64,000 nt of DNA from Candidatus Multivoradales bacterium (lineage in GTDB: Bacteria > Acidobacteriota > Thermoanaerobaculia > Multivoradales > Multivoraceae): assembly GCA_965223325.1 (NCBI GenBank), contig CBDCWI010000002.1:3104001-3168000 (forward strand). The letters run 5' to 3'. Position 1 is the first letter of the stretch, and each line of letters begins with the position of its first letter. Below the pieces are notes generated by a model. That model made no database searches. It saw nothing but the letters and a program-made list of their open reading frames with translations, and was not told the origin of the DNA. Below, piece after piece: positions 2-51,029 of this stretch. Made by a program: the position numbers and the translations under genes.

Positions 2-1729
2 CGTGACAATGGAGTCGGAGTGATTCCCGAGTTCCCGCGCGACGAAGCGCTGCGACACATGGCCACCAACATCGGCCATTCGCGTAAGCGCTCGCTCACG
101 CCGCGCGAGCGTCTCGAGCTCATGACCCAGGGTCAGTACGGCATCGGCCTGCTCGGCTTCTGGAGCCTGGGGCAGACGCTCGAGGTCGAGAGCTGGCGCA
201 CAAAGCAGGAGCGAGGGCCAGAAGGCGAGGACCAGAAGAAGGAGGTAAATGATCAACAGGGGCGCCCCCATCGCCTCACCCTTCACCGCAACCGGCGCGA
301 CTGGCTCATCGAGCCCCTGCGCCGCCGCAAGGCTCCCGACCTCCCGTCGACCGTGGTCCGCATCGTCGGGATTCACGACGACGCTCTGCGAGTGCTCACT
401 GCCAGACGCGCCTCGGTCTACCTCGGCAGCGAACTCCGCGGCCAGCTGCTGGCGCGGGAAGTCGAATTGTGGGTCCACGACCGCATGGCGCGCGGTAGGG
501 CTCCCCGCCGCCTCGCGGTGGAAGCGAGGCGGTTCACCGGTACGCCCCTCGAGGTAGCGAGCGTTCCGGTGCCGGGCTATCCCGACGTGCAGCTCGACCT
601 GTATCTCGTCGAGAAAGCGAGATCGCAGAGCCCGGTCTCTCTCTACGCTGCCGGCACGCTCGTCGCCGAGAGCTTCGGCGAACTAGCGCCTCTCAGCCTC
701 AACCGCCGACCCTGGACCGACCCGCGCCTGACCGGGGTCGTGGAGTTTCCTGCGCTGTCGGTCGCCGCCGGCAGTCGCCGCGGGGTGCTGCCCGATGCGG
801 CCAGCGCAGCCTTCTGTCGCGCCCTCGAATCCGTCACACCGAGAATCGAGTTCCTGCTCGCCGAGGAGGAGGAGCGCCGCGAAGAAGAGCTCGACCGCTC
901 TCTCGTGCGCAACCTGCAGAAGGCCTTTCGTGGCATCAGTTCGAGCATGGAGCGCTTCGCGCTTCTGCCGGTCGAAGACGGCAGCGAAGGGCCACCGGCG
1001 CCGGGCGGCAGCGAGGCCCAGGAAGAGCAAGCGTCGGCAGACGAATCCGACGAGGCGACGGAGGCAGTCGCAGGCGAGGCGGAGGGGCGAGCGGTGCTCG
1101 AAACGCCGGCCTTCACCACCACCGAGGCACCTCTGTCCGAATCCGCACCGACCGGCGCCCTCCACGAAGTCCGCATCGAGCCCTCCCGCCTTCGACTCCG
1201 CCCGGGGGCGGCCCGCATCGTCCGTGCCCGCGCCTTCGACGCGGACGGGCGGCTGATCGGCGGCCGCGTCGACTACCTGTGGCGCCTGGTCGACCTGCCA
1301 GGCGAGGTGGAGGAGTTGCCGAGCCTCGGTTCCAAAGTCAGGGTGCGTGCACAGGGGTCTCCCACAGCCGGCAGCCTGCGAGTCGTAGCTTGTCAGGGCG
1401 ACCACCGCGCGACCGCCGAGATTCCGGTCGAACTCCTCGAGCCTCGTCCCGAGAGGGCCGAGGGTTCGGAGGGTGTTCCCGAACCCGAGTTGGTCGGCGA
1501 CTCCGGGGCACTCTGGCGCTCCCGCGTGCGAGCGGGGCGCTGGCAGGTCAATTCGGCGCACCCTTCGTGGTCCGAGGTTGCTTCCCAGCCGGCGCTCAAA
1601 CTGCGCTACCTCGCCTTGCTCTACGCCAAAGAAGTCGTCGTCGCGACGCACCGCGATCCTCGACTGGCCGAACCGCTCGAGGAGCTCGTGGACATCTTCG
1701 GCTACGCCGACAGGAACCTGGCGCGCTAG
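2..1729 (+). CDS. GHKL (HSP90/MutL/MORC-like) ATPase domain protein, 5'-truncated by window edge
   Basis: Frame is open from base 2 and reads RDNGVG (DNGxG box), then IGHSRK and GQYGIGLLGFW (GxxGxG box). An acidic linker and a beta-rich Ig-like segment follow. Confidence 0.7.
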   Translation, partial: RDNGVGVIPEFPRDEALRHMATNIGHSRKRSLTPRERLELMTQGQYGIGLLGFWSLGQTLEVESWRTKQERGPEGEDQKKEVNDQQGRPHRLTLHRNRRDWLIEPLRRRKAPDLPSTVVRIVGIHDDALRVLTARRASVYLGSELRGQLLAREVELWVHDRMARGRAPRRLAVEARRFTGTPLEVASVPVPGYPDVQLDLYLVEKARSQSPVSLYAAGTLVAESFGELAPLSLNRRPWTDPRLTGVVEFPALSVAAGSRRGVLPDAASAAFCRALESVTPRIEFLLAEEEERREEELDRSLVRNLQKAFRGISSSMERFALLPVEDGSEGPPAPGGSEAQEEQASADESDEATEAVAGEAEGRAVLETPAFTTTEAPLSESAPTGALHEVRIEPSRLRLRPGAARIVRARAFDADGRLIGGRVDYLWRLVDLPGEVEELPSLGSKVRVRAQGSPTAGSLRVVACQGDHRATAEIPVELLEPRPERAEGSEGVPEPELVGDSGALWRSRVRAGRWQVNSAHPSWSEVASQPALKLRYLALLYAKEVVVATHRDPRLAEPLEELVDIFGYADRNLAR

Positions 1730-34750: not shown

Positions 34751-35680
34751 TCACACGGGGGAGGCGAGCTGATCAGCCCAACCCTGGTGCAACCCTCTCA
34801 CGTAGTGGCAACGTAGCGTGCCCTCCCAGAGGGAAGGCGTGTTCACAGGCAGATTCTGCAAACTGCGGGCCAGCGCCGTGCCCAGGCGGCGTTTCCAGGC
34901 CGGCGGCTCCGGCGGTGGGCCATCCTTGCTGAGGCCGACAAGGGACCCGAGCTCGGGGTGCCGCTGGTAGAAAACGACGGCGTTGTAGCCGGCGCGCCGC
35001 TGGCGTTCGCAAAAGCGCTCAAAAGAGGTCGGGTGATCGTGCAGGACGCGTGCCCCCGACCGGTAGACGAGGCGGAGGCCGAAGCGTTTCTCGAGTCGGT
35101 AGGACAGCTCGGTGTCTTCCCAGGCGGCGAACGGAAACCCCTCGTCGAAGGGCTCCTCCACCAACAGCCTGCGCGGGATCGACAGATTCGAGGTGTAGAG
35201 GAAGTTGAAGGGCACGTCGTTCGGCGTGTCGATCAGTGCATAGCCAAACTGAAGACCGTACTCGTTGATGTAGCGCAGGAACGGGTTGGTCCCCGTTCGT
35301 GGGTGCCATCCGGTGTAGCCAATCACTGCCACGGGGCGCTCATCGCCTCGCGGCTCGCTCTGCGCCTGCCAGTGGGTCGCGAGCCAGGTCGGCAACGGCA
35401 CCGTGTCATCGCCCAGAAAGGCAATCACCTCACCCGACGCCAATTGAACGCCACGGTTGCGCGCAGCAGCCGGCCCCCGGTTCTCCTGGGTTTCGAAGAC
35501 CAACGGCACCGACAGGTCACAGCTCGAGAGCCACCCCGCTGTGCCATCCGTCGAACCGTCGTCGACGACCACCACCTCAAAAGGCGGTGCATCGATCTGC
35601 TCTCCGAGAGCGGCGAGCACCTCCGGCAGCACTTCCAGCCGATTGAACGTCGGCACGACCACGCTCAGTTGAGTGCTCAA
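34751..35680 (-). CDS. glycosyltransferase family 2
   Basis: SVVVPTFNR, VVDDGSTDGT, GPAAARNRG, FLGDD and WEDTEL motifs. The TTG start overlaps the upstream stop. Confidence 0.92.
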   Translation of the reverse strand: MSTQLSVVVPTFNRLEVLPEVLAALGEQIDAPPFEVVVVDDGSTDGTAGWLSSCDLSVPLVFETQENRGPAAARNRGVQLASGEVIAFLGDDTVPLPTWLATHWQAQSEPRGDERPVAVIGYTGWHPRTGTNPFLRYINEYGLQFGYALIDTPNDVPFNFLYTSNLSIPRRLLVEEPFDEGFPFAAWEDTELSYRLEKRFGLRLVYRSGARVLHDHPTSFERFCERQRRAGYNAVVFYQRHPELGSLVGLSKDGPPPEPPAWKRRLGTALARSLQNLPVNTPSLWEGTLRCHYVRGLHQGWADQLASPV

Positions 35681-37047
35681 CCCTCGGTCTCCATGACCTC
35701 TCTGAGCCGAGCGCGCCGAGGCGCGAGGCTCGGGTGCGTTTCTCTGTCGGGCCACAGGGCTTCGAACCCAGGGGAAGCGAAAAGCTCCTCGTCGCCCAGG
35801 TAGGTTGGAACCAGCCAGAGCGGGAAGCGTTCGAAGATCTCGCGGTCAGAACGGCGGCGCGCAGCCAGGTTCAGAGAACGTCTCTCCATCGTCTGGTCTC
35901 GATGTACCTTGACAGACTGTAGAACGCGCAACTGGGACAGCACCTGCGACTCGCCGATCGACACCGATAGCCTCGAACCGCGGTCCTGCCTCGGTAGCAG
36001 GAGCGGCGAGCTCGGCGAGGCGATCGCTGCCAGACGGATCAACGAGCGGGCGACCAACTCGCGCGGACCGTAGTCGCGCAACCGCCGCCGCCAGCGGCCG
36101 AGCGCACCTTCGGCGGCGTCGACTGGTGCGCGCTCATCGGGTGCGGAGCGGGCGGTGTTGGCGACCGCTCCCTGGAAGGGGTCGACACAGAAAGCCTCTC
36201 CGCCCGGAACGGTCTCGGCCAACAGTGACGCCGTACGCGATTCGAGCGTCACGAGGACCGCCGGCATCATCGCCGCGAACGACGTTTCATCGAAGTTCTT
36301 GAGCACCGTCAAGAGGGCGTTGCGCTCGAACAGGAATCCTCGGTTGTGATCACCCAGGAGGTTGCTGGTCGCCATCGAACGGTGATGGACCACCGCCTGC
36401 TCGGAGAACAACACTCGTAGGCCGCGTGCCCACCAGCGCCAGCCGAGGTCGACGTCCTCGAGGTACGCAAAGTAGCGCTCGTCGAAGCCGCCGGCGTCGA
36501 GAAAGGCATCCCGCCTCACCATGGCGTTGCCTCCGCACGCGAACAGAAGCTCCTCGCCGTCTTTGGGAACGCGCGCCTCTTTGAGCGGTCGTCGGTAGTC
36601 GAGCTGAAAGGCATGACCATCGAAGGTCATGATGCCGCGACCGAAGTCGAGCCGCTCACCCGACCAGTCCACGATACGGCCGGAGATCGCCGCGACATCG
36701 GCCGGAGCAGCGGCCATGGCATCGACCAGGCACGCCAGCCATTCGGGGTGCGGACGGGTGTCGTTGTTGAGGAGAGCCACGGCGTCAGCGGCCGAGGCTT
36801 CAACCAGGCGGTTCGAAGCAGCACAGAACCCAAGGTTCGCCTCACTGTGTAGACATTCGACGTCTGGGTGATGCTTTTGCAGCCACTCGCGCGTACCGTC
36901 GGTGGACCCGTTGTCGAATACCAGAACACGCCACGGCACGCCCGGGTGCCGTTGGTCGAGAAGTGCTGGTAGGCAGGTTTCCAGGTGCTTGCGGCCATTC
37001 CAACTCGGAATCGCCACGACGACGTTCTGCAGTGCGGAAGCGCTCAC
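35677..37047 (-). CDS. glycosyltransferase family 2 (WbbL/rhamnosyltransferase-like)
   Basis: DNGSTDG, NLGF, LLNND and GGFDERYFAYLEDVDLGWR motifs. Confidence 0.9.
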   Translation of the reverse strand: MSASALQNVVVAIPSWNGRKHLETCLPALLDQRHPGVPWRVLVFDNGSTDGTREWLQKHHPDVECLHSEANLGFCAASNRLVEASAADAVALLNNDTRPHPEWLACLVDAMAAAPADVAAISGRIVDWSGERLDFGRGIMTFDGHAFQLDYRRPLKEARVPKDGEELLFACGGNAMVRRDAFLDAGGFDERYFAYLEDVDLGWRWWARGLRVLFSEQAVVHHRSMATSNLLGDHNRGFLFERNALLTVLKNFDETSFAAMMPAVLVTLESRTASLLAETVPGGEAFCVDPFQGAVANTARSAPDERAPVDAAEGALGRWRRRLRDYGPRELVARSLIRLAAIASPSSPLLLPRQDRGSRLSVSIGESQVLSQLRVLQSVKVHRDQTMERRSLNLAARRRSDREIFERFPLWLVPTYLGDEELFASPGFEALWPDRETHPSLAPRRARLREVMETEG

Positions 37048-38375
37048 ACTGCGCCCCGCGCCCGAGAGAAGCGGCGGCTGATCCGCGTCAGGAAGCGGCG
37101 CAGTCTGAAGCTCGCGGCGTCCGCCGGGGCGGCGGTACCTGGAGATACCGTGAAGTCCTGCCTCGTCGTGTCGACCCAGGGCTCTTGCGCGAAACGGACC
37201 AAGGGCTCGAGAACAGCTTCCCAGCTCAGTGTGGCAGCGAGCTCCTCGCCTTTGCGCGTACGCGCTTCGACCTGGGCGCCGCCAGCCAGAACTTCGGCGA
37301 GTCGAGCTGTCAGGCCTCGGACATCACCGGCCGCGAACTGCCAACCGGTCTGTGCGTCGTCGAGGAGCCGGCCGAGAGCACCGCCGCGCGTGGTGACTAC
37401 CGGACAACCAACCCGCAGCGCCTCGAGAAAACGCGTTCGCAACGAGAGCTCCGTCTCGATTCCCGGCTGCCAGGCGCCGACCATCAAGTCGACATCGCGC
37501 AGGAGATCGAATCGTCTCTCGAATGGCACCCAGTCGAGGATCTCGACCATCGCCGCCAGCCGGGGCTCGCGCGCCATCCGCGCTCGCACCTCTTCGAGGC
37601 GCCGTTGGGGAGTCGACTCCACGTTCGGGTTGGCAACGACGAGTAGGCGCAGGTCGTCTCTTCGAAGACCCAGGAGGGCGTCAAGCACCGTGTGCGGGTC
37701 GTACCAGTCATAGAGGCCGCCAAAGAGGAGGACCCTCTCGGACCTTTCGTCGAGGTAGCGACGGTGCTCGGGAAGGTCACGCGCCAACCCAAAGGGAACC
37801 GTATCGATGAGTCGGCGAAAACCCGGGTCAGTTCGAGCCAGGTGCGGATTGACCCGGCCAAGGGCGGTGAGAAAGCCCAGGTAGAACCGTCGCTGTTCGT
37901 CTGAAGAGCAAAGGAAGAAGTCGCCGCGGGCGAGCTGCAGCATCCAGGTCGCATGATCGTTACGCCAGGGCTCGAGCCCGAGGGTCTCGGTGTAGTGGAA
38001 GTTCTCGACCAACCAGGGGTCGTAGAAGTCGAAGGCGACCGGTAGCTCAGAGGCTTGAGACACGACATCGTTACCCAGCTGGCCCTGCGCCAAAACACCC
38101 CGACATCCGCGCAGTTGCTGGGCGAGTTCCTGGCGAACGAAGGGCACCCAGGTGAGCCCGTCGCCGCCGCTACCGACGCCGGCTCTGGGGTCGAACCGAG
38201 AGCCCGCCTCGGGAGGAGGCGAGATCATCCGCACGGGGATCCCCTCTGCCGTCAGGCGGCGCGCGATCTCGACGTAGCGAATGCCGATGCCGGCCATGCG
38301 AGCCCGTAACGGCTCGCTGACGACCAGCGCGAATGGGGCGTCTCGTCCGGAGGAGTGCCGCAACGTCTCGGTCAC
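37044..38375 (-). CDS. glycosyltransferase family 4-like (GT-B)
   Basis: MAGIGIRY, GGLYDWYDP and ETELSLRTRFLEAL..G.PVV motifs. Confidence 0.82.
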   Translation of the reverse strand: MTETLRHSSGRDAPFALVVSEPLRARMAGIGIRYVEIARRLTAEGIPVRMISPPPEAGSRFDPRAGVGSGGDGLTWVPFVRQELAQQLRGCRGVLAQGQLGNDVVSQASELPVAFDFYDPWLVENFHYTETLGLEPWRNDHATWMLQLARGDFFLCSSDEQRRFYLGFLTALGRVNPHLARTDPGFRRLIDTVPFGLARDLPEHRRYLDERSERVLLFGGLYDWYDPHTVLDALLGLRRDDLRLLVVANPNVESTPQRRLEEVRARMAREPRLAAMVEILDWVPFERRFDLLRDVDLMVGAWQPGIETELSLRTRFLEALRVGCPVVTTRGGALGRLLDDAQTGWQFAAGDVRGLTARLAEVLAGGAQVEARTRKGEELAATLSWEAVLEPLVRFAQEPWVDTTRQDFTVSPGTAAPADAASFRLRRFLTRISRRFSRARGAV

Positions 38376-40213
38376 CCGCGACCCTTCCATCGCTCGATGC
38401 GTTGATGCCAGCGCCACGCCCGAGTTCGTTCCATCGCCGCGATGATTCCCTGCAATCGTTCGATCTCACCGTAGGTTCGACCGAGGTGTTCGGTTTGATC
38501 ATCGATGGTCGATCGCATCGACGCTTCGTTGTCATAGAAGCGTTGCGCTTGATCAGTCAAACGCAGCCGCTCTCGACGCTCCGCCTCGAGCTCAGTGCGG
38601 GCGGTACGCAAGGCCTCGCCGGTGGCCACGGCTTCTGCTCGCATGTCGGTAATGGCACGTGCCAGGGTCGGGGCGTCGAGCAAGGCGGCGTGACGCTCGA
38701 AGAGCTTCGCCCGCATAGCAACGAAGTCGCGCTCGAAGTCGGTCGCCTCGGCCTGGCCGCCGCCCAGCACGTGATGGTCAGCACCGCGGAAGTGACGGTA
38801 CTCACAGGTCACCCGGGGCAGGTGATGGAAGTTGACTCGCTGCGCGAGGCGGATGAGCAGGTCCCAGTCCTCGAAGAAGAGGAGGTCGTGATCCAGGACA
38901 CGGCCTGAGGGGTCTCGCACTTCTTCGAGCAGAGACTTCTCGACCAACACGGTGTTGAAAGGAATGTAGTTGTCAACCAGAAGGCGGATACGGTCGAAGT
39001 CGCGGCTGTACGGCAAGCGACGCTCGCGACAAACGAAACCACCCTCCTGAGGGTCGAGTTCGTAGACGGTCACTGCAGCGTCGCTGTAGGCAAGCCGAAC
39101 CCCCGCTCCTTTGTGAGCCGCTACCAAGGTCGCGATGTGCTCTGGAGCCACCAGGTCGTCGTCGTCGAGGAAACCGACGAGCTCGCCGCAAGCGGCACGA
39201 ATTCCGGCGTCGGCTGCCGCGGCCCGCCCCTGGTTCTCCGGCAAAGCCACCATCTGCACCTGGAGGTCGAACGTCGGCAGATCGACCGGAGCGCCTCCGT
39301 CGTTGACGACGATCACCTCGACTTTGCGATAGGTACTCTCAGCAAGCGAACCGACCGCCTCGCGCAGAAGATCGGGTCGATCGCGTGTACGCACGATGAC
39401 ACTGACCAGGGGACCCGAAGACACCTGCACGTTCTGCGGCGCGCCGCCGAGGTGCCGAACCAGTTGCACCAGACTACGCGTCCGGAAGTCGTCGAGGTCC
39501 AGCCGACGGTAACCCTCAGCGGCTTCGACTTCCGGCGCGAGGGTGTGGGTGCGGTACTGGCGTAGACCCAAGGCGGCCGAAAGGTAGTCGTGGCGCTCCT
39601 GCTGCGAGGCGTAGAGGGCCATCGCTTCGCGTAGCCGATCGATCTGGGTTCCAACATCTACCAGGAGGTCGGGATGGTGCGGGTGGTTGACCTCGTAGGT
39701 CAGAACCACCGGTCCAGCTCCGGCAAGCCCAGGGTCAGTGGCCGTTGGCGCATCGCGTCGTGACGAAAGCACCTCATGAACGGCGGCGAAGGCCGCCTGG
39801 TGATCGGGCGTGACCTCGAGTGGCGAGGGAACCAGCAGCAGGTCCGGCTGGTGTTCCGCGAGCGCCTCCACAAACGCCGCTCTGATCTCGCCTATGCGAT
39901 GTTGTAGCTGGCCATCGGGCAGGTCGAGATGGGTAGCCGCAAAGCCGAAAAGAGCCGCGACCGCATCAGCCTCCTGGCGTCGTCTTTCGGAGTAGGCCGC
40001 CGGGTCATCGGCGCCTTCGATTCCCCCGGCACCGTCGGAGAGAAACAGTACGTTCGCCCGAACTCCACCTTCGATGAGGGCAGCGAGTAGGCCGCCGCAA
40101 CCGAGAACCTCGTCGTCGTAGTGCGGTGCCACCACCAGTACGGAGCGTGCACTGACCTCAGTCACCTCACCGGGCGGAGTGACGGGAGCGCTCACCACAG
40201 GCCCCGCGGGCAA
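38372..40213 (-). CDS. PIG-L/LmbE de-N-acetylase + GT2 + C-terminal coiled-coil fusion
   Basis: APHYDDEVLGCGG, TPDH, Y.SQ; then VSVIVRT, VNDGG, FLDDDD, FEDWD; heptad-rich tail ending MERTRAWRW. Start uncertain. Confidence 0.88.
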   Translation of the reverse strand: MPAGPVVSAPVTPPGEVTEVSARSVLVVAPHYDDEVLGCGGLLAALIEGGVRANVLFLSDGAGGIEGADDPAAYSERRRQEADAVAALFGFAATHLDLPDGQLQHRIGEIRAAFVEALAEHQPDLLLVPSPLEVTPDHQAAFAAVHEVLSSRRDAPTATDPGLAGAGPVVLTYEVNHPHHPDLLVDVGTQIDRLREAMALYASQQERHDYLSAALGLRQYRTHTLAPEVEAAEGYRRLDLDDFRTRSLVQLVRHLGGAPQNVQVSSGPLVSVIVRTRDRPDLLREAVGSLAESTYRKVEVIVVNDGGAPVDLPTFDLQVQMVALPENQGRAAAADAGIRAACGELVGFLDDDDLVAPEHIATLVAAHKGAGVRLAYSDAAVTVYELDPQEGGFVCRERRLPYSRDFDRIRLLVDNYIPFNTVLVEKSLLEEVRDPSGRVLDHDLLFFEDWDLLIRLAQRVNFHHLPRVTCEYRHFRGADHHVLGGGQAEATDFERDFVAMRAKLFERHAALLDAPTLARAITDMRAEAVATGEALRTARTELEAERRERLRLTDQAQRFYDNEASMRSTIDDQTEHLGRTYGEIERLQGIIAAMERTRAWRWHQRIERWKGRG

Positions 40214-40491
40214 AGCTCCATTGCGATCTTCATCAATGCCATAGAACTCAGGTTCGTTTCACTAGGGTCCGGGGTCCCGCCGGTTGAGCGCGCGGGTCGG
40301 CTTCTCGAGGGAATCCCGGAGTATTGGAGGAGAAAGCGCAGAGGGGACAGAGATCTGGCAGAGAGACAGCAACGTTCGACTCTCGTGCAGCACTGGAACC
40401 ACTGTATCCAGGATAATGGATCTCCCCTACCACCCGCCCCCGCAAGTGGCGAGTCTCAAGCACCGATTCCAGGCTCCCTGGAGAGCACCTC

Positions 40492-42039
40492 TTGCCGACG
40501 CCCGCTCATTCAGACCTCACAGCGACCACCCTGGCCGAAGTCGTCGACCTGGCACTCGAGCACCTGCCAGGCAAAGAGCGCCCACTCCTGATCGATCCCC
40601 CGCCCGAGCTGGTGGAGTCGGTCTGCGGATCAGAGCGCCCTCTGGTTGGAGAGGTCCGAGAGCTCCTCGAGCCTCTGGCTGGCGGGACCCCAGTCGCCAT
40701 GTCGACCCCGACCGACCTCTTGATCCTTCAGCCACTCGCCGAGCTGCTCGCCAACCAACAACGAACGACGGCGTTTGCAGAGGCTCTTGCTTCCTCACTC
40801 GCAACCGAGAGTCGCGCCGTCGTCCTCGAGCCTCCGGACCCGCAACCTGCGCGGACCCTGCGGGCGGCGCTCGCGGCCGCCGGGACCCGGATTCAGAAGG
40901 CAATCCCTCTGCGCCCGAATGACCGAACCGGCGACCCGCAACCAAGGGTTCTCATGCTGCGATTTGACGGTTACCCGGTGCGGGACTTCGAGCCTGGCGA
41001 CGAGCACTCACTCAGCGAGCTCTTCGAATCCTCCTTTCACCACCAGCGGCCGTTGGCCCACTGGACCTGGAAGTACCGCGAGAATCCCTGGGGACAGGAG
41101 CGCATTTCAGTCGTCCTCGACCAGGAGAGCCGGGTCGTAGGGCAGTACTGCGCCTACCCGGTTCCTTTCGTGCGCAGACTAAGCGGCAGGCTCGAGAGCT
41201 TTCTGGCACATCAGGTCGGGGACACGATGACCGCACCGGCGGTCCGTGCGGTGGGTCGTGGGCCCACCAGTCTGCTCGCCCGCGCCGCCCACCACTTCTA
41301 CGATCGCCACTGTCATGACGGCGTCGCCTTCAACTACGGCTTCAACACCGGCAACATCTTCAAGTTCTCGCGCCGCTACGTTGGCGCTCTCGAAGTCATG
41401 CCGGTTCCCTACCGCGTGCGGAGCACCGCGGCGGTTCGACAATCCGGCAGCAGGTCCCTTCTGCGACGCATGAGAGAGCCCATCCGGGTGGAGGTCTTAC
41501 GCTCGGGCGACATCATCGGCCCCGACCTGGCGGCAGAGCTCGATCGCTTGATGAATCGCGCCACCCTCGATGAGGGCCTGATGGTCGAGCGCACGAGCTC
41601 GTACCTGCAGTGGCGCTATCTCGCCCGGCCAGACGCCGACTACCGCCTCCTCCTCGCCTGGTCTAGAAAGAAGCTCCTGGGCTGGAGCGTCTTTCGCCGC
41701 GCCAACCCGTCAGAGGTACACCATGCCGGCACAGAGTCGGTCGCTTCAACTCTTCTATGGGGCGACGCGCTGTGGCCCTCATCCGGAATCCGAGCCGATC
41801 TTCGTCGAATCGGGTGTTCGCGTACCCTCGACGCAGCGCAGGAGGCATTTCAAGCCACCCGAGTCGTCGGCTGGTTCGAGGGCAGTTCCCAATGGAAAAG
41901 GCTCCTCGACGACCTCGGCTTCGAGGGCCGTTCGGAACCCAACGGCCTCACGATGGTGGTCGTTCCGTTCGCCTGGAGCGATCCCACCTCAGCACTACAG
42001 ACCGGCTACTTGACGATGGGAGACGGCGACCTCTTCTAG
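40492..42039 (+). CDS. GNAT-family acyltransferase with N-terminal extension
   Basis: W.WKY.ENP, VVGQY, QVGDTMT.P..R and YGF motifs; second GNAT half R...YLQWRY..P. Confidence 0.75.
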   Translation: MPTPAHSDLTATTLAEVVDLALEHLPGKERPLLIDPPPELVESVCGSERPLVGEVRELLEPLAGGTPVAMSTPTDLLILQPLAELLANQQRTTAFAEALASSLATESRAVVLEPPDPQPARTLRAALAAAGTRIQKAIPLRPNDRTGDPQPRVLMLRFDGYPVRDFEPGDEHSLSELFESSFHHQRPLAHWTWKYRENPWGQERISVVLDQESRVVGQYCAYPVPFVRRLSGRLESFLAHQVGDTMTAPAVRAVGRGPTSLLARAAHHFYDRHCHDGVAFNYGFNTGNIFKFSRRYVGALEVMPVPYRVRSTAAVRQSGSRSLLRRMREPIRVEVLRSGDIIGPDLAAELDRLMNRATLDEGLMVERTSSYLQWRYLARPDADYRLLLAWSRKKLLGWSVFRRANPSEVHHAGTESVASTLLWGDALWPSSGIRADLRRIGCSRTLDAAQEAFQATRVVGWFEGSSQWKRLLDDLGFEGRSEPNGLTMVVVPFAWSDPTSALQTGYLTMGDGDLF

Positions 42040-43178
42040 CCTCCTCCGGTCGACCGTGGGGAGCCACAGAGCTCGAAGTTCGCCAGCTCGCGAAGCCGGT
42101 GATCGGTGACCGCAACACGAAGCGAGTCCCCTGCCTCGAGGTTGTCCGCAATCGGAGTCGGCACGACCCAGCGCGACGGCGGCCTGTCCGACAGACACTC
42201 ACCCACCGCGGGAACCCCGCTCGGCTCGGGCGAGACTTCGACCCATAGATCTCGCGTCGTCGCCTGTTCAGCGACGGCGTCGAGGTCCAACTCGAAATCG
42301 CACACTTCGAAGGTGCCCTCCGGGCGGGCGGCGGCCTGGCCGGACGCGGCACCAGCGAGAAGTTCGAGCAGCCGCGCTCCGAGTCTCCCGTAGCGCTCGC
42401 GCCGGAAGCGGCGCGCAGACTGCTCAAACCAGGCACTCGCCAGGGGCTCGTGCCGGGTGCTGCGCGCGTGAAGGTGGACGGCGACCGCATCAGGAACGTA
42501 GAAGGCGGGCACTCCGGCCGCCCGAGCGCGCATCAACCACTCCGTTTCCTCGAAGTAGAGCTGGTAGCGGCGGTCGAACGGCCCAATTCGCCCGAGAATC
42601 GCACGCGGAAACGCCAGCAACGCTCCGGAGAGGGCGTGCGACTCGAGCGCCCTCGTGGTTTGCCAGTGTCGGCGCGCGTGACGCCGGAACCGCTCGGCGG
42701 CGCTTCTCTGCGCCCAGCGACCGGCGCTTCCTGGCCGGCCTGCCAAAGCCCCCAGGAGGGCATCTGGCCAGGCGTGAGAGTCCGCCGGAGGCATCATCAA
42801 GCGGCGCGCTTCTGTCCAGTAGAACCTCGGCCCCGCGATGCTCTGGCTGTCGGGATCAGCGGCGACCAACCTTAGGAAGCAGTCGTCGTCGACTAGAACG
42901 TCTGGGTTCATCGCCACCAGCCACCCCGCCTCCGAGCGCTCGATGCCGTAGTTCAGGCCACCGGCGTAACCGAGATTCTCCGGCGCCTCGAGAACCCGAA
43001 CGAAGTGGCCACACGCGTCCCGGCCGCTGAGTCCGTCGAGGCTCCCGGGGGCGGAACCATTGTCGACGACGATGAGCTCACCACCACCAACGGGCACAAG
43101 TGCCCGCGATGCGGCAGCAAGGGCCCTTCGCAAGAGCTGCGGCGTCTGGTAGTGGACGAGGATGACCGCCCGTTTCAC
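42036..43178 (-). CDS. glycosyltransferase family 2
   Basis: VVDNGS, NLGYAGG.N, MNPD and GPFDRRYQLYFEETEW motifs. Confidence 0.88.
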   Translation of the reverse strand: MKRAVILVHYQTPQLLRRALAAASRALVPVGGGELIVVDNGSAPGSLDGLSGRDACGHFVRVLEAPENLGYAGGLNYGIERSEAGWLVAMNPDVLVDDDCFLRLVAADPDSQSIAGPRFYWTEARRLMMPPADSHAWPDALLGALAGRPGSAGRWAQRSAAERFRRHARRHWQTTRALESHALSGALLAFPRAILGRIGPFDRRYQLYFEETEWLMRARAAGVPAFYVPDAVAVHLHARSTRHEPLASAWFEQSARRFRRERYGRLGARLLELLAGAASGQAAARPEGTFEVCDFELDLDAVAEQATTRDLWVEVSPEPSGVPAVGECLSDRPPSRWVVPTPIADNLEAGDSLRVAVTDHRLRELANFELCGSPRSTGGG

Positions 43179-43342: not shown

Positions 43343-46300
43343 CTAGAGGTCGTCTTCGCTACAGGGCAGAGCGAGGGTGTCGGTGATCGCAGGCGACCGG
43401 GTGCCCAGCGGATTGCGATAGATCACGCTCTCGCCAGTCACCGTGTCGGTGACCTTCATCGTGTACTTCTGGTCGGTGGTCGACGCCGCGAACACCCAGA
43501 AGTGCTCGGTCTGGCTGCAGCCATCGAGAACTTTGACCAACATCTCCCAGTTCCGTTCGTTGAAGAACCAGAACAGGCCCGAGTCGGAGGTGGCCAACGG
43601 AACGACATTAGCCTTCCCAGAATCGCCTTGTTGGTTGGTCCAGTTGACGAAGATCTCGAAGCGCCCGCTACGCAGACACATCTTCTTGCTCGAGGCCGTG
43701 CATGTGCCGCCGGTCGACTGGCCGACGGTAATCTTCTGCGTGATGGTCGCGGTGCAGAAGCGGAACGGCTGACAAGCCGCATCGACTTTCGAGATTTCGA
43801 GGGTGACGGTATAGGTCCCTGGCTCGCTGTAGGTGTGCGCGATCTTCGCGACTTCCGAACCTCCCGATGCTTCCTCACCATCTCCGAAGAACCAATGGAA
43901 GCTCTCGGCGTTACCGGCGCTACCCGTGGCGTCGAAATTCACCGTCTGGCCAGCTGCTGGAGCCGGCACGTCGAGCGTGAACTGCGGGTCGAGGCCACCG
44001 TTGCCATCGGGCGGAGTCACTCCGCCGGAGTCCTCACGCACTGAAACCGATTTCGAGCGCGAGACGCTCGTGCAACCGCCGTTGGTTGGCGTAACCGAGA
44101 TCGACTTGGCGCCGATGGTGTCCCACGAAAGAGTGACGGTGCGCGTCGTGAGCGGACCACTCGAAGTGGCAGTTCCAACCGTCCAGGCCCAGGCGGTGGG
44201 TGCTGGGGTGCAATCGCGAGCCGTGGCGGTAAAGGTGGCCGTGGCGTCCACTACGACCGAGGACGGGCCGGAGATGGTGACCGAGGGATCGGCCGGCGGT
44301 GGCGTACCCGTTCCGATCCGGATCGTGTCGCTGTGGGTGAACGTCACACTGGCACCGCCTCGAACGGCGGTCACCCGCGGCTTGAAGTCACCGTTCGTGG
44401 TGTAGGTGTGGTTGATCGACGAGTCGCGCGCCGGGTCATTGATCGTCTCGTCGATCGAGCCGTTGCCGTCCCAATCGAGGTCGACTCGTTCCGGCGAGCC
44501 CCCGAGTCCGAGGTTGAAGGCGACTGGCGTACCGGCATTGGCAAAGCACAGCCCGCTCGAGCAGAAAGGAATCTGCGCTTTGAACTGACGAACCTCGAGG
44601 ACCTCGACGTTGTTGACGACCACAGTGGTCGAGGTCGACCGTTGACCGTCACGACAGTTGGAGACCGTGACCGTCACCTCGTAGGTGCCCACCGCGGTGT
44701 ACTGGTGGGTCGGGTTCGGCCCGGCGAGGGGGTCGCTCGAGGAGAAGGTGTCGCCGTCGCCGAAGTTCCAGTCCCATTGCGTAGCGCCGGCAGCCGCGAC
44801 CTGGAAGTCGACTTCACCGAAATCAGGCGAGCCGGCCGTGATCTGTGGATCACCGAGATCAGCGAGTGCCGTGACCTCGAAGTCGGAACTATTCACAGAC
44901 GCTTCTCCAACGTCGTTCTTGACCTTGACGCGCGCGAAGTAAGAACCGGCTGCCTGATCAGACGGAACGGTCCAGGAGAAGGTCTCTTCAGACCCGGTAG
45001 CCAGCGCACCGACTCCGGCCTGACGAGCACTCCACTGGTAGGTCAGCGGAGCGCGGCCGAGTACCGACTCGGCCTGGAAGGACACCGTTCCACACTGCGG
45101 AACCGACGAGACGTTGGCGGACACGGCATCAACCGACGGTCGCGGATCGAAGACCACGAAGTTTCTCGTCGACACATCGCAGCCGCTGTCGTTGCAAGCT
45201 TCCAGGCGCACCTGGTAGGTGCGCGGGTAGGCGCCCTCGTCGGGCACCAACCAGGAGGGGTTCTGAAGCGTGCTGTCAGGGGTCGTGTCGTTGGCAAAAT
45301 CGAACCACCACGTCCAGCTGGTCGGATTGCGACTCGAACTGTCGATGAAGCTGACGCTGTCGCCGCCGTAGACGTTTTCACCGGGGAGCTCGAAGTCGGC
45401 CTGTGGGGGCAGGTTGCCAATGACCTCGTGAATATCGAAGATCGACCAGGCCGCCCGGTAGACGCGGCCACCCCGCACCGCCGCACCGTAGGGGGCGACG
45501 TTGCGAAAACCCGTTGAGTTGTCCTGGTAGTACCAGCCCCAGTAACCATCAGGATGAGACTGCGGGGTCAGGTCCTTTGGAGCCGTGGGCACCGCCATGT
45601 CGAACAGGTACTCACGCTGCGGGCCCGAGCCGAAAGCGCTGCGGGTGCCAGCGAACAGGTAGGGAACGCCCTGATCAAACGAATACTGCAGGCGGTTGGT
45701 CTTGGTCGGAATGTTGGCGGCGTTGGGCCCGCCGGGTGTGCTGATCGTGGTGACTGCCCGCATGTTGCAGGAGCCCCCAGTGAGGCACGGCACCTCGTAG
45801 ACCTCCACTTCCTGCCCTGTGGCAAACGCGGTGTAGAGCCGCCCGGCGTGCAACCAGGTTTCCAGGTCGAGCGAGTTCGAGCCACCGGTCGCAACCAGCC
45901 TTGCATTGGTTGGCAGGGACACGTCCCAGACCTGAGGCACGCCAGCACTTCCGGTTGTCAAGAGGTACTTACCGGAGACTGCAATCAGCCGGTTGCTTTG
46001 CACCGGAACACCGGCCGAGCTGACCTGGCCAATGTAGACCCCCGGACACATCAGTTCGTTCTGCTGCGTGCCCTCGTAGCAGTTGGTCGTGAGATCGAGC
46101 ACCGCCGACATGTCATAGGCAAAGATGTTCTTGCTCTGGGCGACGGCGAAACCGACATGGCGCCCGTTGATCGTGGTCGCCTCGACGTCGAGAATCGTCA
46201 GGACCTCACCGCTGCCGACACCTTTGCGTCCTTCGTCCTGGTAGCGCAGCTTCATCGCGACAGGGTTGGTCGTATCGAGAATGATCACACCCATGCCGCC

Positions 46301-46759
46301 TTCGATACCGCCGATCACGACATCGTCAACACCCGGCGGTGCGGCCACCGAGCGGATGTAGAAGTCTTGATCCGTGCGCTTCCACGGTCCGAGTGTGGGC
46401 GTGCAAATGCGCCCCGCGACCTCGGGATCGTCGGGGTTGACGTTGAGCGGCCATACCTCGATCTGGTTCCCGCCAACGGCAAACAAGAGGTTGCCCTGGG
46501 CGGCGACGTCGGTGTACATCGGAACCTGGCAACCGGGCTCGAAGTTGAACTGGTAGCTGGTTTGATCCGAGATGATGCCGCGTGGCTCGAGCCCGCCCCA
46601 GCGATCAGAGGGAACGACGGCGGCTGGCGAACAGACTTCGCAGTTGTCAGCGGCTGAACCAGGCGTGGCGGCTAACAGCAAAAGGACGACGGCGAGAAGA
46701 AGGAGCGTCAGTGGGCCACGATGAGCACGTAAAGGTTGTGCTCGAGGGTAGGAAGGCAT
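43343..46759 (-). CDS. large secreted PKD-repeat surface protein (propeller-like N-terminus, multiple PKD/Ig, distinctive C-terminal module)
   Basis: Signal peptide, WNFGDG/WFFGDG/DWDGNG PKD signatures, H.Y...GTY.VTL, and a C-terminal CL..GRF...W...FWFF...N.E.LVKVLDGC...FWVF domain. Confidence 0.85.
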   Translation of the reverse strand: MPSYPRAQPLRAHRGPLTLLLLAVVLLLLAATPGSAADNCEVCSPAAVVPSDRWGGLEPRGIISDQTSYQFNFEPGCQVPMYTDVAAQGNLLFAVGGNQIEVWPLNVNPDDPEVAGRICTPTLGPWKRTDQDFYIRSVAAPPGVDDVVIGGIEGGMGVIILDTTNPVAMKLRYQDEGRKGVGSGEVLTILDVEATTINGRHVGFAVAQSKNIFAYDMSAVLDLTTNCYEGTQQNELMCPGVYIGQVSSAGVPVQSNRLIAVSGKYLLTTGSAGVPQVWDVSLPTNARLVATGGSNSLDLETWLHAGRLYTAFATGQEVEVYEVPCLTGGSCNMRAVTTISTPGGPNAANIPTKTNRLQYSFDQGVPYLFAGTRSAFGSGPQREYLFDMAVPTAPKDLTPQSHPDGYWGWYYQDNSTGFRNVAPYGAAVRGGRVYRAAWSIFDIHEVIGNLPPQADFELPGENVYGGDSVSFIDSSSRNPTSWTWWFDFANDTTPDSTLQNPSWLVPDEGAYPRTYQVRLEACNDSGCDVSTRNFVVFDPRPSVDAVSANVSSVPQCGTVSFQAESVLGRAPLTYQWSARQAGVGALATGSEETFSWTVPSDQAAGSYFARVKVKNDVGEASVNSSDFEVTALADLGDPQITAGSPDFGEVDFQVAAAGATQWDWNFGDGDTFSSSDPLAGPNPTHQYTAVGTYEVTVTVSNCRDGQRSTSTTVVVNNVEVLEVRQFKAQIPFCSSGLCFANAGTPVAFNLGLGGSPERVDLDWDGNGSIDETINDPARDSSINHTYTTNGDFKPRVTAVRGGASVTFTHSDTIRIGTGTPPPADPSVTISGPSSVVVDATATFTATARDCTPAPTAWAWTVGTATSSGPLTTRTVTLSWDTIGAKSISVTPTNGGCTSVSRSKSVSVREDSGGVTPPDGNGGLDPQFTLDVPAPAAGQTVNFDATGSAGNAESFHWFFGDGEEASGGSEVAKIAHTYSEPGTYTVTLEISKVDAACQPFRFCTATITQKITVGQSTGGTCTASSKKMCLRSGRFEIFVNWTNQQGDSGKANVVPLATSDSGLFWFFNERNWEMLVKVLDGCSQTEHFWVFAASTTDQKYTMKVTDTVTGESVIYRNPLGTRSPAITDTLALPCSEDDL

Positions 46760-46924: not shown

Positions 46925-46960
46925 AAAAAAGAGACCCGACCTTACGGCCGGGCCTCTCTT
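46925..46960 (-). terminator. Rho-independent terminator
   Basis: Minus strand GAGGCCCGGCC-GTAA-GGTCGGGTCTC-TTTTTT. Confidence 0.85.
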
Positions 46961-46986
46961 CGACTGCTCGCGGAGGAGCGGTCACC

Positions 46987-47022
46987 GAACTCCCGCCACC
47001 TATGAGGGGGCAACGGGAGTTC
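46987..47022. other. 3'-UTR hairpin immediately after secreted-protein stop
   Basis: GAACTCCCG...CGGGAGTTC, 9-bp arms. Confidence 0.6.
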
Positions 47023-47035
47023 TATGTCACAACCT

Positions 47036-48310
47036 CTAGTTGCTGAGGTTGTTCAGCTGAATGGCGTCGTAGCCAACGCTGAACTGACCCAGGGCGTCGG
47101 CGACTGCGACGACGTAGGCCTGGTTCTGCTCAGCCGGGTTGGCACCCGAAGCCTGGTCGAGGTCCAGGAGGAGCCAGCCGAAGTTGGCGTTGACCGTGAG
47201 GTCAGTGCCGACGACCGTCCGGTTGGACTCCCAGGGGAACGGAGTTTCCGCATCCGCTGGGGGAAGACCAGAAGGACCACCGGTGACGACGGTGAGCGGG
47301 TTCTCCTGCTCATCGAAGACGGTGATGCCAGCCTGGGTGAACGGCATGTTGGCCGGGGCGCTGCCACAGGCTACCGGAGCGTTGGCGGGGTCGCCGGGAT
47401 CGCGATAGCTGAGGAGGTTCGTACCACCGTCGAAGTCACCACCCGCGAGGTAGCGAACTGCGAACTCACTGCCGAGCGCTTCACGGTTGTCGGCGCCGGG
47501 CTGACCGGCGGCGTCCGTGTAGCGGCAGTAGAACGTCTGCGGGTTGCCGTCGACCACGCAAGCGTTGAGGCTAGCGTCGGCTTCGACATGCACGAGGGTG
47601 AAGCCCTGGGCGAACGCGTTGGCGCGGTCGATCAGGAAGTAGTCACCCCAGAGGACGTTCAGGTTGTTGGCGATACCAACGCCACCATCCGAGAAGTAGT
47701 TCGCACTGTTCGGGAACTCGAGCGAGCAATCGGTGACGGAATCGATCGTGATGTAACCACGAGCGAGGGTGCCATCGCCTGCTGCCGAGGTGCAGTTACC
47801 GCCACCGATGTCGGTGCCGGAGAGTTCCGCCTGGAGGAGGGCAATGAAGCCATCCGGAAGCGGCTGCGTGTAGACCGGCGGCTGCGGGGGCGAGGTGCCC
47901 TGGTTGCAGTTCGCCGCGAAGGCTGCACCGAACGGGTTCGGAGCCGTCGAGAGTGAGCCAACGTTCGAGACATCAGGATGCGGACCGGTCTGCGGCAGGA
48001 TGCCGTTGACCAGCACGTTGCGCATGCTGATGGTCTGGACGTCGTAACCAGTGAGGTAGACATCGAAATCGAGCACCGGGATGGTGAACTCGGTCCAGAC
48101 GGTGATGTGGGCCAGAGCCGGGGCGGCCGAGGCGTTGTTGACGGAGAACAGGGTATCGATACCGCTGTTCGACGCAAGATCGACCTCGAAGTGGGGCAGG
48201 AGCAGCGTAGCGGCCGGAACGGCGTCAACCGTACCGAGCTCAGCAACAGCCTGGCCACCACCGAGAAGCACGAGGCTTCCGAGAGCGATCAGAATGACTA
48301 GCTTCTTCAT
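47036..48310 (-). CDS. secreted acidic Cys-rich hypothetical protein (candidate S-layer/major surface protein)
   Basis: AAGGAG RBS, Sec signal MKKLVILIALGSLVLLGGGQAVA, PAATLLLPHFEVDL; Asn/Gly/Ala/Asp-rich with strongly C-ending codons. Confidence 0.8.
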   Translation of the reverse strand: MKKLVILIALGSLVLLGGGQAVAELGTVDAVPAATLLLPHFEVDLASNSGIDTLFSVNNASAAPALAHITVWTEFTIPVLDFDVYLTGYDVQTISMRNVLVNGILPQTGPHPDVSNVGSLSTAPNPFGAAFAANCNQGTSPPQPPVYTQPLPDGFIALLQAELSGTDIGGGNCTSAAGDGTLARGYITIDSVTDCSLEFPNSANYFSDGGVGIANNLNVLWGDYFLIDRANAFAQGFTLVHVEADASLNACVVDGNPQTFYCRYTDAAGQPGADNREALGSEFAVRYLAGGDFDGGTNLLSYRDPGDPANAPVACGSAPANMPFTQAGITVFDEQENPLTVVTGGPSGLPPADAETPFPWESNRTVVGTDLTVNANFGWLLLDLDQASGANPAEQNQAYVVAVADALGQFSVGYDAIQLNNLSN

Positions 48311-48539
48311 TTCAGACAATCTCCTTGGTGACGCCCGGTTTTGTCCTGGCGTCATCATTTCTTTCTTCTTTCTAAGTTCTGCCGCGCCTTCGAGGGCGCG
48401 GCGTCGAAGGGATTCATTGCCTTCGTCCTGCGTACCCATCACCTCCAGGTCAAGATTTCAACTGCATGTCGTTTCACATCGAACGAACGACAACCGCCAC
48501 CAGAGGCAACGGCCGCACCCGTTCACGGATACGGAAAAC

Positions 48540-48571
48540 TGGTATCGAAAAAGTTGGTTTGGTATCGAAAA
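48540..48571. repeat. 12-bp direct repeat with 20-bp period (probable regulator binding sites)
   Basis: tggtatcgaaaa at 48540-48551 and 48560-48571. Confidence 0.6.
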
Positions 48572-48748
48572 TCATCGCCGCGCTCCGGTTTGCTTCTTCG
48601 GTGATCGAGCAGATCGACGGTGACCGGGAAAACCGCGACTGGCGCAAGGTCTCACGTCGAGAAGAGCTACGGCTGAAAAGGCTCGGCATCCATCCTGGCT
48701 TTCATGCCCGGACGACGGGTAGCAGGGCCCATTCCCCTTGAGTCACGC

Positions 48749-48778
48749 ACCATACGGGCCGCAACGCTCACCTGTCAA
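48749..48778 (-). promoter_or_regulatory. candidate sigma70 promoter for 47036-48310
   Basis: Minus strand TTGACA, 18 bp spacer, TATGGT. Confidence 0.5.
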
Positions 48779-50560: not shown

Positions 50561-51029
50561 GGGTGGAAACGTCTCTGAGGTTCCGGGTCAAAACGATATC
50601 TGGATCGCAGGCTGAAGGTGGACCGGCGGCCGCCGGACCAGGTGGGGGCGCGCGTGGAGCGCTGTCGCCGAGGCGTCCTGCACCCTCGACACTGTCTGAA
50701 CGCCCCTGCCCGAGACCGGTTCCGCACCGGGTGAGCACCGGCTCGGGGAGCGACCGCAGCGACGGGAGAGCGTAGAGGCCTCAGTCACGCACCCCCCGGA
50801 CGGGCCCCAGTGCTCTCGAGCATACGGAAAAGCCGCGGTTCTGATGGCGCGGAGTCTAGCAGTCCGGGACATGGAGCCGCGCCCTCGAGGGCCGCCAGGC
50901 ATCGCGCTCTCCGATTGACCCGCTATGGCCTCCGGGCGTATGATTCGGTGTTCTCCGCGTGGGTCCACACCGCTTCCTTTCGGTGGAACTCGCCTCAACC
51001 GATGCCTCCCAGGGCGATCGGTACTCCTT

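Follow-up and report, generated by a model that had tools for sequence, protein, structure and literature searches.

The rbm genes of Vibrio cholerae appear, from the gene numbers, to be located between vps-I and vps-II. In the passages of the sources cited here, RbmA is described as a dimer in which two tandem beta-sandwich domains interact in trans, in antiparallel orientation, and which binds the Vibrio polysaccharide VPS (PMC5605196); Bap1 and RbmC are described as containing FG-GAP domains (PMC4551309). A different arrangement has been reported for Aeromonas salmonicida in which, according to the part of the source dealing with this locus, the A-layer genes (vapA and the secretion genes) form an insert in the O-antigen cluster, with wzm and wzt on either side (PMC4483657). 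Finally, the section of De Souza, Iyer and Aravind 2009 (PMC2739507) used here argues that ASRAH domains are sugar binders, always present as dyads or tetrads, with a pocket walled by the dimer interface; a conserved Asn ending strand 2 is given as the hallmark, beside a conserved Trp at the start of strand 1, and for the secreted members a binding of cell-surface sugars is predicted. We have compared with these systems a gene found in a stretch of 64,000 nucleotides (the window) of the genome of a Candidatus Multivoradales bacterium, a member of the Acidobacteriota. The gene, here called T, codes for a protein of 424 amino acids (aa) and is located between F, an upstream gene coding for an FG-GAP protein, and B, a downstream gene coding for a PKD protein. 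The predicted fold, the predicted self-pairing and the conserved gene context suggest that T is an abundant, self-pairing and RbmA-like coat or matrix scaffold of the envelope that binds polysaccharide, an interpretation in which we place about even confidence.

The region from the end of the terminator T-run to the -35 hexamer of the promoter-like site (46925-48778, minus strand) contains a single gene, T (the coordinates of its features and neighbors are collected in Table 1). Its product is probably secreted, judging from an N-terminal signal peptide, MKKLVILIALGSLVLLGGGQAVA, followed by ELGT (…GGGQAVA before the cut, ELGT after it). The cleavage site was placed by eye, and the signal peptides of F, T and B were likewise judged by eye from the sequence. 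Mature T (401 aa) has no Lys, an isoelectric point (pI) of 4.05, 43 acidic residues (Asp plus Glu) versus 8 basic ones (Lys plus Arg), and six Cys, at positions 135, 173, 195, 251, 262 and 315, that are conserved in the family. The first-pass annotation of the window had described a Sec-exported protein of this length with a Lys-free acidic mature part and six Cys, and every one of these properties was confirmed from the sequence. The low Lys content is a trait of the whole family, with a median of 0.25% (189 members of 380-480 aa) versus 1.9% in the open reading frames (ORFs) of at least 300 aa of this genome. About 50 positions are invariant among 40 T sequences of approximately 50% identity, including D90, D190, D223, E243, D274, R276, E277, R286, R303, D333, E334 and E336. 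A longer version of the gene, a 468-aa ORF starting at the GTG at 48442, was considered and rejected: 40 out of 40 homologs begin at the MKK codon, and the GTG lies in a GGAGGTGA box that is found among relatives in all three frames with respect to the ATG. Since the homologs start at MKK and the frame of the box varies, the N-terminal extension has to be considered non-coding.

The AlphaFold2 model of T, built from a 40-sequence alignment, is all-beta save for short helices in an insert (predicted local distance difference test, pLDDT, 82.7; predicted TM-score, pTM, 0.86). When this model was compared by VIA-align with 48,161 chains, the top match was TM1070 (1nc7_A; Z 8.8, root mean square deviation, rmsd, 2.8, 112 of 116 residues aligned, model 22..244), followed by ASRT, the sensory rhodopsin transducer of Anabaena (2ii7_A, Z 5.3). 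The N-terminal domain carries an insert of ~85 residues (~96-180), of lower confidence and containing Cys pairs. The C-terminal part gave only weak rows in this search (pilin, MSCRAMM and CBM, Z ≤4.6), and for this reason residues 240-424 were modeled separately, from a fresh alignment derived from the locus DNA (pLDDT 76.4). Again TM1070 came first (1nc7_A; Z 7.9, rmsd 3.0, 104 of 116 aligned, residues 276-421), with 2ii7_A at 4.6 and the next row at 3.6. The match to the eight-stranded sandwich of TM1070 refers to these alignments as a whole. According to these models T is a dyad of TM1070/ASRAH-like beta-sandwiches, and at the level of modeling we take this fold as established for both domains.

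The similarity to the ASRAH domains (PF07100; 1nc7, 2ii7) thus comes from the top structural match of both T domains, and the two domains per chain, together with the predicted dimer described below, would parallel the ASRAH dyads and tetrads and the TM1070 tetramer. The invariant N58-N59 of T close the second predicted strand of the N-domain. At strand 1 the N-domain has no Trp, and the equivalent position in the C-domain is occupied by WRD. The only stretch aligned by hhalign pairs the N58-N59 motif with the 'LN' motif of ASRT, non-significantly. T differs from ASRAH in the lack of sequence or profile similarity, in the lack of the strand-1 Trp and of the SHEshChhN signature, and in the ~85-residue insert. 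Besides, ASRT and TM1070 are small and cytoplasmic, unlike T, which is exported and codon-adapted and has a range restricted to one class of Acidobacteriota.

Mature T was tested as a homodimer and gave a score of 0.65 (runs 0.60, 0.67 and 0.65), versus 0.00 for the best of three controls. In the calibration of the test, 20 of 30 proteins solved as pairs of one chain reached this mark, but only 1 of 23 known as single chains did; these figures apply roughly, since T was run with an alignment of our own. Contact agreement in the runs was at least 81% and the partner pLDDT at least 85. The predicted interface is symmetric, with the N-domain of one chain facing the C-domain of the other, and includes contacts of residue 58 with 284/286, of 223 with 286 and of 236 with 412. 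It comprises 46 residues, of which 29 are strictly conserved or at least 90% so, versus 116 of 401 overall (hypergeometric p = 3e-7), the conserved ones including N58, A60, W221-G222-D223, R286, F332, E334 and G378-W379. T is therefore predicted to pair as a closed symmetric homodimer. This fits the composition of the family, in which many members are two-module proteins of ~800-880 aa and the genes are often arranged as tandem pairs or arrays. The suggestion in the first-pass annotation that T is the subunit of a lattice or sheath gains from the predicted self-association, but the test covered a symmetric dimer, and what is predicted is a closed pair of C2 symmetry, with no sign of lattice contacts.

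A similar arrangement is that of RbmA, since the predicted T dimer uses the same N-to-C' disposition, and the constant partner of T, F, is an FG-GAP protein, as are Bap1 and RbmC, with which RbmA works in the Vibrio case. The differences are that the RbmA domains are of the fibronectin type III (FnIII) and not ASRAH-like, that there is no sequence relation, and that the polymer of T would leave through Wzm/Wzt. On this basis the following model can be proposed. T would be exported via Sec as an abundant structural protein of the envelope or of the extracellular matrix, located outside the outer membrane. Two chains would associate head to tail, N-domain against C-domain, to give a four-domain unit with the most conserved polar and aromatic residues at the domain junctions. 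This unit would bind the surface polysaccharide exported by Wzm/Wzt, whose genes flank the cassette in most relatives; sugar binding is suggested by the fold and by the gene context. Because the unit would be at least bivalent, T could cross-link or coat the polymer together with F and B. Where the T module is fused behind PKD, DUF11 or Calx-beta arrays it would act as the attachment piece of those proteins. A high output would be ensured by a conserved strong promoter, a leader bearing conserved boxes, a near-consensus ribosome-binding site (RBS), adapted codons and a terminator of its own.

The invariant residues also permit a different explanation, that T is a secreted beta-sandwich enzyme acting on the polysaccharide or on the neighboring surface proteins, with the invariant charged residues as its active site. 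The ~50 invariant positions, with many Asp, Glu and Arg, the neighborhood of glycan and ABC-exporter genes and two of the fusions found in the family, one to Exo_endo_phos and one to P_proprotein, are in agreement with it. However, Foldseek against the PDB gave nothing at E ≤0.001 for either the whole model or the C-domain, and the glycoside-hydrolase rows of VIA-align were weak (Z ≤4.1), with no enzyme standing out; the first-pass annotation, which would have been contradicted by a known enzyme fold, stands in this respect. Tandem duplication and a C-terminal place after arrays of Ig-like domains would rather be expected of binding modules, the very high codon adaptation better suits a stoichiometric than a catalytic product, and the subunit interface, as predicted, is enriched in conserved residues. 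We consider an enzymatic role quite unlikely.

The genome is 6.69 Mb long, in two contigs, and 98.2% complete. We calculated the codon adaptation index (CAI) for 4556 ORFs, a set obtained with a crude caller as the longest ORFs with a third-position G+C content (GC3) of at least 0.70, using as reference 29 genes coding for ribosomal proteins, EF-Tu, EF-G and RpoB/C around the two tuf copies. T had a CAI of 0.730 and rank 30 of 4556, comparable to EF-G (0.742) and RpoC (0.735). F was at rank 283, and the sole T paralog in the genome (C2:1375413-1376672, ~60% identical) had a CAI of 0.568 and rank 2952. Across the ORFs, GC3 and CAI go together (r = 0.72). The bias of T is more than a GC3 effect because its preferences for codons ending in thymine shift in the same way as in the reference set (gene T versus genome-wide: GGT 0.52/0.21, GCT 0.25/0.11, CGT 0.25/0.14). 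The strongly biased codons mentioned in the first-pass annotation are thus borne out by the comparison with the ribosomal genes.

The signals around the gene point in the same direction. Upstream of T the promoter consensus scan found one site versus 0.3 expected, which by itself is weak evidence. Among relatives, TTGACA-N16-19-TAnnnT (mostly TATAGT) is located 141-468 nt 5' of the ATG in 29 of the 37 FG-GAP-linked loci (the genomes and loci compared are kin, and this and the following counts exceed the number of independent events). The -35 hexamer was invariant across an alignment of 21 leaders, and the RBS stretch AGGAGATTGTCTGnnATG is kept at the nucleotide level. The distance between F and T is 582 bp in the window, and the F-T spacers range overall from 117 to 582 bp with a median of 339. 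At the 3' side there are two strong hairpins (minimum free energy -63.3 kcal/mol, z -6.1, with 0 of 200 shuffles as stable), and a hairpin of -10 kcal/mol or lower followed by a T-run was found between T and B in 19 of 29 loci of relatives; in several of the other 10 it was missed because the next ORF had been called too long. Given this conserved promoter, leader, RBS and terminator, T appears to be monocistronic and geared to high output. This agrees with the first-pass annotation, in which a strong RBS (AAGGAG), an upstream non-coding region of ~580 bp (582 bp), a 3' hairpin and a separate terminator were described. Judged by codon bias, promoter and RBS, T looks highly expressed; with regard to the abundance expected of an S-layer protein, what we have observed are the proxies, i.e. 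the CAI rank of 30 of 4556 and the promoter, RBS and terminator.

The predicted leader of T is ~430 nt long, and the inferred leaders of relatives vary between 106 and 432 nt. The Shine-Dalgarno-like box GGAGGTGA was invariant in 21 of 21 aligned leaders, and the 8-mer was found in 31 of 37 upstream regions. It is located 94-176 nt before the ATG among relatives, in all three frames, and is therefore non-coding. A second purine box, GAGGAGAGTGGAG, is found downstream of the first in many relatives. Other conserved boxes were seen in the leaders upstream of T, in the window and in loci L008-L068, one (GCATAAAAC) near the inferred 5' end and another of the form CTTTnAAC-GGAGGTGAT. Searches for structured RNA were negative: an Rfam scan of the whole window gave no family at the gathering threshold, at E ≤1 the leader gave only sub-threshold matches to Rothia-sucC and BjrC68, its stability against shuffles showed no excess structure (z -1.08), and RNAalifold on 26 leaders returned four weak pairs, no conserved structure and zero covariation. 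Control by CsrA through the repeated GGA boxes was considered and discarded, as the genome, 98.2% complete, yielded no CsrA gene. In view of the lack of a conserved RNA structure and of a CsrA gene, the boxes look like sequence elements resembling Shine-Dalgarno sites. The nearest precedent is the leader of cryIIIA in Bacillus thuringiensis, which reportedly contains such an element, STAB-SD, said to have been described by Agaisse and Lereclus in 1996, that stabilises the mRNA. In both cases a Shine-Dalgarno-like sequence is located far 5' of the start codon, within the long leader of a gene that is, or by our proxies seems to be, very highly expressed. The host of T differs in being a diderm of another phylum, and a second purine-rich box follows the first. 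By analogy, the T leader is possibly mRNA-stabilising in the STAB-SD style.

In the window F and B are on the same strand as T and the glycosyltransferase (GT) genes come next, as the first-pass annotation had described for its co-directional FG-GAP and PKD flanks. B contains PKD repeats (Pfam PKD_4, 2e-32 in 4 stretches; PKD, 7.8e-32 in 5 stretches). In order to compare this neighborhood, ORFs were called and clustered in 70 loci of relatives plus the window and the cluster representatives were scanned against Pfam; F-T loci were 37, of which 31 had enough flank. The T of the window belongs to the paralog class found in a conserved F-T-B block. The block starts with an extracytoplasmic function (ECF) sigma factor, a small thioredoxin-like protein, an M23 peptidase, (a GHMP kinase) and, on the opposite strand, an unknown secreted protein and a TPR protein. 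It continues with (a helix-turn-helix, HTH, regulator), wzm (ABC-2 permease), F, T, B and (an arylsulfotransferase-like propeller), and ends with wzt (ABC ATPase with a Wzt_C domain), a radical SAM/SPASM gene and a GT2. Among the 31 loci, B was downstream in 28, wzm upstream in 23, wzt downstream in 18 and GT2 downstream in 14; the GT2 adjoining B in the window belongs to this same neighbor cluster (c10, 14/31). In a second paralog class the genes occur as T-T pairs, preceded by a gene for a small outer-membrane beta-barrel, and the neighborhood is an unrelated one. A large part of the synteny over the wider 20 kb (ECF sigma, M23 peptidase, TPR) seems to be simply gene order that has been conserved.

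The association of F and T is also apparent at the genome level. In 41 genomes of the order, both were present in 34, neither in 7 and the discordant cases were 0. In 29 of the 33 other genomes having both, T was found, when the coordinates were compared by hand, on the same strand within ~660 nt 3' of F, and the four exceptions were a contig edge, a partial T, a reversed order and a non-adjacent pair. The N-terminal part of B was present in 27 of the 41 genomes, the Wzt C-domain in 37, and the radical SAM gene in 26 (in 0 of the 7 without T, and missing in 8 with T). The linkage with PKD and FG-GAP genes proposed in the first-pass annotation is therefore conserved (B in 28/31 loci, F and T with identical patterns in the 41 genomes), and so is the link to polysaccharide genes (wzm in 23/31 loci, wzt in 18/31).

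Several observations weigh against a polysaccharide-binding scaffold. The relation of T to ASRAH is, by the models, at the level of fold only and without profile support: the PF07100 profile gave no match to T at E ≤1, and hhalign of the T alignment versus six acidobacterial ASRT proteins gave a probability of 0.13% (0.27% for the C-domain). VIA-align itself notes that a Z of ~7-8 is a common best score without true relatives. The TM1070 matches nevertheless carry weight because they cover nearly the full target, are clear of the next rows and were obtained independently for both halves. Regarding the dimer, the conservation of the interface is not independent evidence because the same alignment drove the prediction, and the same surfaces might instead pack within one T chain, the prediction having given no coordinates. 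A catalytic or metal site would be just as good an explanation of the many invariant Asp, Glu, Arg and His. In the genome of the window, the wzm-wzt-radical SAM block is 1.6 Mb away from the cassette, and neither an outer-membrane export route nor dedicated secretion genes were identified in the cassette beside T. The Wzt C-domain is present in four genomes of the sister genus that have neither T nor F and is missing in one with T. A strict co-inheritance of T with the Wzm/Wzt exporter had to be rejected on account of this discordance, and the coupling between the two is thus positional and not obligatory.

The position of the cassette leads to the comparison with the A-layer of Aeromonas salmonicida, since the F-T-B block lies between wzm and wzt in most relatives. 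Here the differences are the absence from the cassette of a dedicated type II secretion system, which Aeromonas has within its insert, and the location of the window's cassette away from wzm/wzt. General searches of the PDB and of structures turned up no sequence or fold relation between T and VapA, no structure comparison having been directed at VapA itself. T could accordingly be thought of as the subunit of a true S-layer, whose regular two-dimensional lattice would cover the outer membrane and have the O-polysaccharide exported by Wzm/Wzt as its anchor. Codon adaptation within the top 1%, a strong promoter of its own with a long leader and terminator, the acidic pI and the predicted self-association are what could be expected from such a protein, T has been lost from whole genera, fitting a dispensable coat, and the cassette is located in most relatives as vapA is in Aeromonas salmonicida, in the description of that locus (PMC4483657). 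On the other hand, the pairing predicted is the closed C2 dimer only, dedicated secretion genes are missing beside T, and full-text literature searches found no S-layer reported for the class. S-layer proteins usually have few or no Cys and diverge fast. T has six conserved Cys and is the best conserved protein of the cassette, with 42-57% identity to relatives versus 34-40% for F and 28-36% for the N-terminal part of B. Besides, genomes have 1-12 T matches, with tandem arrays, the module is reused as the C-terminal piece of other proteins, and nothing points to T itself being glycosylated. An S-layer lattice is in our opinion rather unlikely, and a matrix scaffold is favored over it because the architecture and the predicted dimer match RbmA and T departs from the S-layer norms.

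The fusions found in the family give a further indication of location. We scanned 26 longer T-family members, and T was C-terminal in 21, N-terminal in 3 and present only as T-T in 2. The partners were DUF11 (9 proteins), PKD (3), Calx-beta (2), CarboxypepD_reg (2), Big_5/Big_9/cadherin, TSP_3 and P_proprotein, with one Exo_endo_phos and one plastocyanin-like domain; CARDB arrays were also among them. The B orthologs P0121 and P0124 (the latter equivalent to L012), as well as the long frames of G276 and G303, carry two C-terminal T modules at the site where the B of the window has a module of ~115-130 aa. Searching the genome with this last module gave 31 matches, of which 24 end no more than 15 codons from a stop and some are in tandem; it is without a match in Pfam or NCBIfam and may be a sorting or anchoring domain. 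A homology between T and B, suggested by single-linkage clustering, was rejected, as BLASTP shows no similarity; the link had arisen from a B ortholog bearing T modules.

These fusions are difficult to reconcile with T being a periplasmic protein made in large amounts (a binding protein or a chaperone, for instance), with neighbors due to inherited gene order and no role at the surface. T has only a Sec signal, with no recognised outer-membrane targeting or sorting signal found, its disulfides would suit the periplasm, and the wider 20-kb synteny is in large part of the plain gene-order type. But the arrays to which T modules are joined (DUF11, PKD, CARDB and Calx-beta) are typical of extracellular proteins, B orthologs carry T modules, and the presence or absence of F and T is identical in 41 genomes, with the genes adjacent in 29 of 33. 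We regard a periplasmic protein as very unlikely. A broader proposal than the scaffold, which we advance tentatively and with less than even confidence, is that the T unit (~400 aa) is a previously unrecognised polysaccharide-anchoring module, present as a free coat dimer and as a C-terminal mooring, and produced from a STAB-SD-type leader. The two ASRAH-like sandwiches would then be the functional counterpart of SLH-type anchors. The free dimer, expressed at a massive level, would cover the Wzm/Wzt-exported glycan as the outermost coat, with the FG-GAP partner, and the C-terminal fusions would moor PKD/DUF11 adhesin arrays to the same glycan. The T module could be exchanged for the unnamed module with which about two dozen proteins of this genome end. 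If this were true, the STAB-SD-type leader of T would be the first case outside Firmicutes.

No family was found for T by Pfam and NCBIfam scans. A match to Sod_Ni (E 0.23) was dismissed as chance, the profile search of PDB sequences gave nothing but a dCTP deaminase (E 1.3), and the ESM Atlas returned only unnamed acidobacterial clusters. A word-indexed search retrieved at least 2290 T-family proteins at E ≤0.001, all of them unnamed or 'hypothetical', and the labeled records among those matches were Acidobacteriota or Thermoanaerobaculia metagenome-assembled genomes. HMMER over 1.84 billion cluster representatives found 2330 members, and a scan of species genomes confirmed at least 653 relatives. 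In a sample of 301 genomes of the phylum, which takes in the unpublished genome G024 (no conclusion rests on it), 25 had a T match (E ≤1e-10), 21 in the class of the window and 4 outside. Within the order the match was present in 34 of the 41 genomes (1-12 matches per genome), and in a sister genus of the window's own family in 0 of the 4 genomes searched. Taken from the sequence searches, the T family is large, spans one class of Acidobacteriota (Thermoanaerobaculia by record titles) and has no name in Pfam or NCBIfam. The first-pass annotation had called the protein undescribed, which is right as far as public annotation is concerned, but T is not a one-off, with more than 2300 cluster representatives.

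Table 1. Location of gene T, of its signals and domains, and of the neighboring genes in the window.
Feature	Position	Strand	Basis or description
T coding sequence, stop codon included	47036..48310	-	424-aa protein
Sec signal peptide of T, residues 1-23, cleavage between AVA and E	48242..48310	-	sequence and family alignment
N-terminal TM1070/ASRAH-like beta-sandwich (predicted), residues ~28-244	47579..48229	-	AlphaFold2 and VIA-align
C-terminal TM1070/ASRAH-like beta-sandwich (predicted), residues ~276-421	47048..47485	-	domain modeled alone
Sigma-70-type promoter TTGACA-N18-TATGGT (putative)	48749..48778	-	consensus scan
Predicted leader, ~430 nt, transcription start inferred	48311..48742	-	predicted
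Shine-Dalgarno-like box GGAGGTGA, 136 nt 5' of ATG	48439..48446	-	alignment of relatives
Ribosome-binding site AAGGAG, 10 nt 5' of ATG	48321..48326	-	sequence reading
First 3' hairpin, right after the T stop	46983..47026	-	RNA folding
Intrinsic terminator, G+C-rich 16-bp stem then T-run	46925..46961	-	RNA folding
F, secreted FG-GAP/VCBS beta-propeller protein, 555 aa	48893..50560	-	Pfam FG-GAP_3 1.6e-34
B, secreted protein, 1138 aa, with ~450-aa N-terminal region, PKD repeats and C-terminal module	43343..46759	-	
C-terminal module of B	43346..43735	-	recurrent in genome
Glycan gene cluster, five glycosyltransferase genes after B	34751..43178	mixed	Pfam
GT2	42036-43178		glycan cluster
GNAT-like gene	40492-42039	+	glycan cluster
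PIG-L/GT2	38372-40213		glycan cluster
GT1	37044-38417		glycan cluster
Two GT2	34751-37047		glycan cluster

Other genes of the neighborhood deserve mention. At 54987-55739 and 56065-56682 of the window (minus strand) are the ECF sigma gene and, following it, the gene of a small exported protein whose WSPRC motif is thioredoxin-like. The small protein gave no Pfam match at 1e-3, the thioredoxin label being a reading of the sequence, and it might serve disulfide formation in the Cys-rich neighbors. Divergent from F are genes for an unknown secreted protein of 459 aa (52075-53454, plus strand, no Pfam match) and for a TPR protein (50925-52067, plus strand), found in 28 of 72 and 23 of 72 loci respectively. 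The arylsulfotransferase-like propeller and the radical SAM/SPASM gene accompany wzt (L043:16398-20125; C2:1527854-1531075, L084), and the passage of PMC4483657 on the Aeromonas locus places a sulfotransferase-domain gene next to wzt. A paralog of the N-terminal region of B (~450 aa, 50% identity) is located at C1:1623799-1625130 (plus strand), within a 673-aa open frame. Farther away, a gene for a CsgG-like lipoprotein (28872-29594) stands beside several Pfam-less ORFs (24520-29594, minus strand), and there is an LptD gene at 21142-23547; this region may be another envelope export unit.

The Thermoanaerobaculia and related bacteria occur widely, in soils and sediments as well as in engineered systems, and almost none of them has been cultured. 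Our full-text literature searches found nothing in print on their cell surface, with no description of the T family, or of an S-layer, a metaproteome or envelope imaging in the class. As a large family that looks highly expressed and is part of a three-gene cassette tied to an exporter, T is the obvious first target for studying the composition of their envelope or matrix. The family is unnamed and uncharacterised, although of a kind already known, the secreted glycan-associated beta-sandwich surface proteins; such secreted glycan-binding proteins are common, so that the principle would not be wholly new. Shine-Dalgarno-like elements of a diderm could be put to the test in the T leader, and, if T is indeed a polysaccharide-binding coat or matrix scaffold, this would be the first abundant extracellular role of the ASRAH fold.

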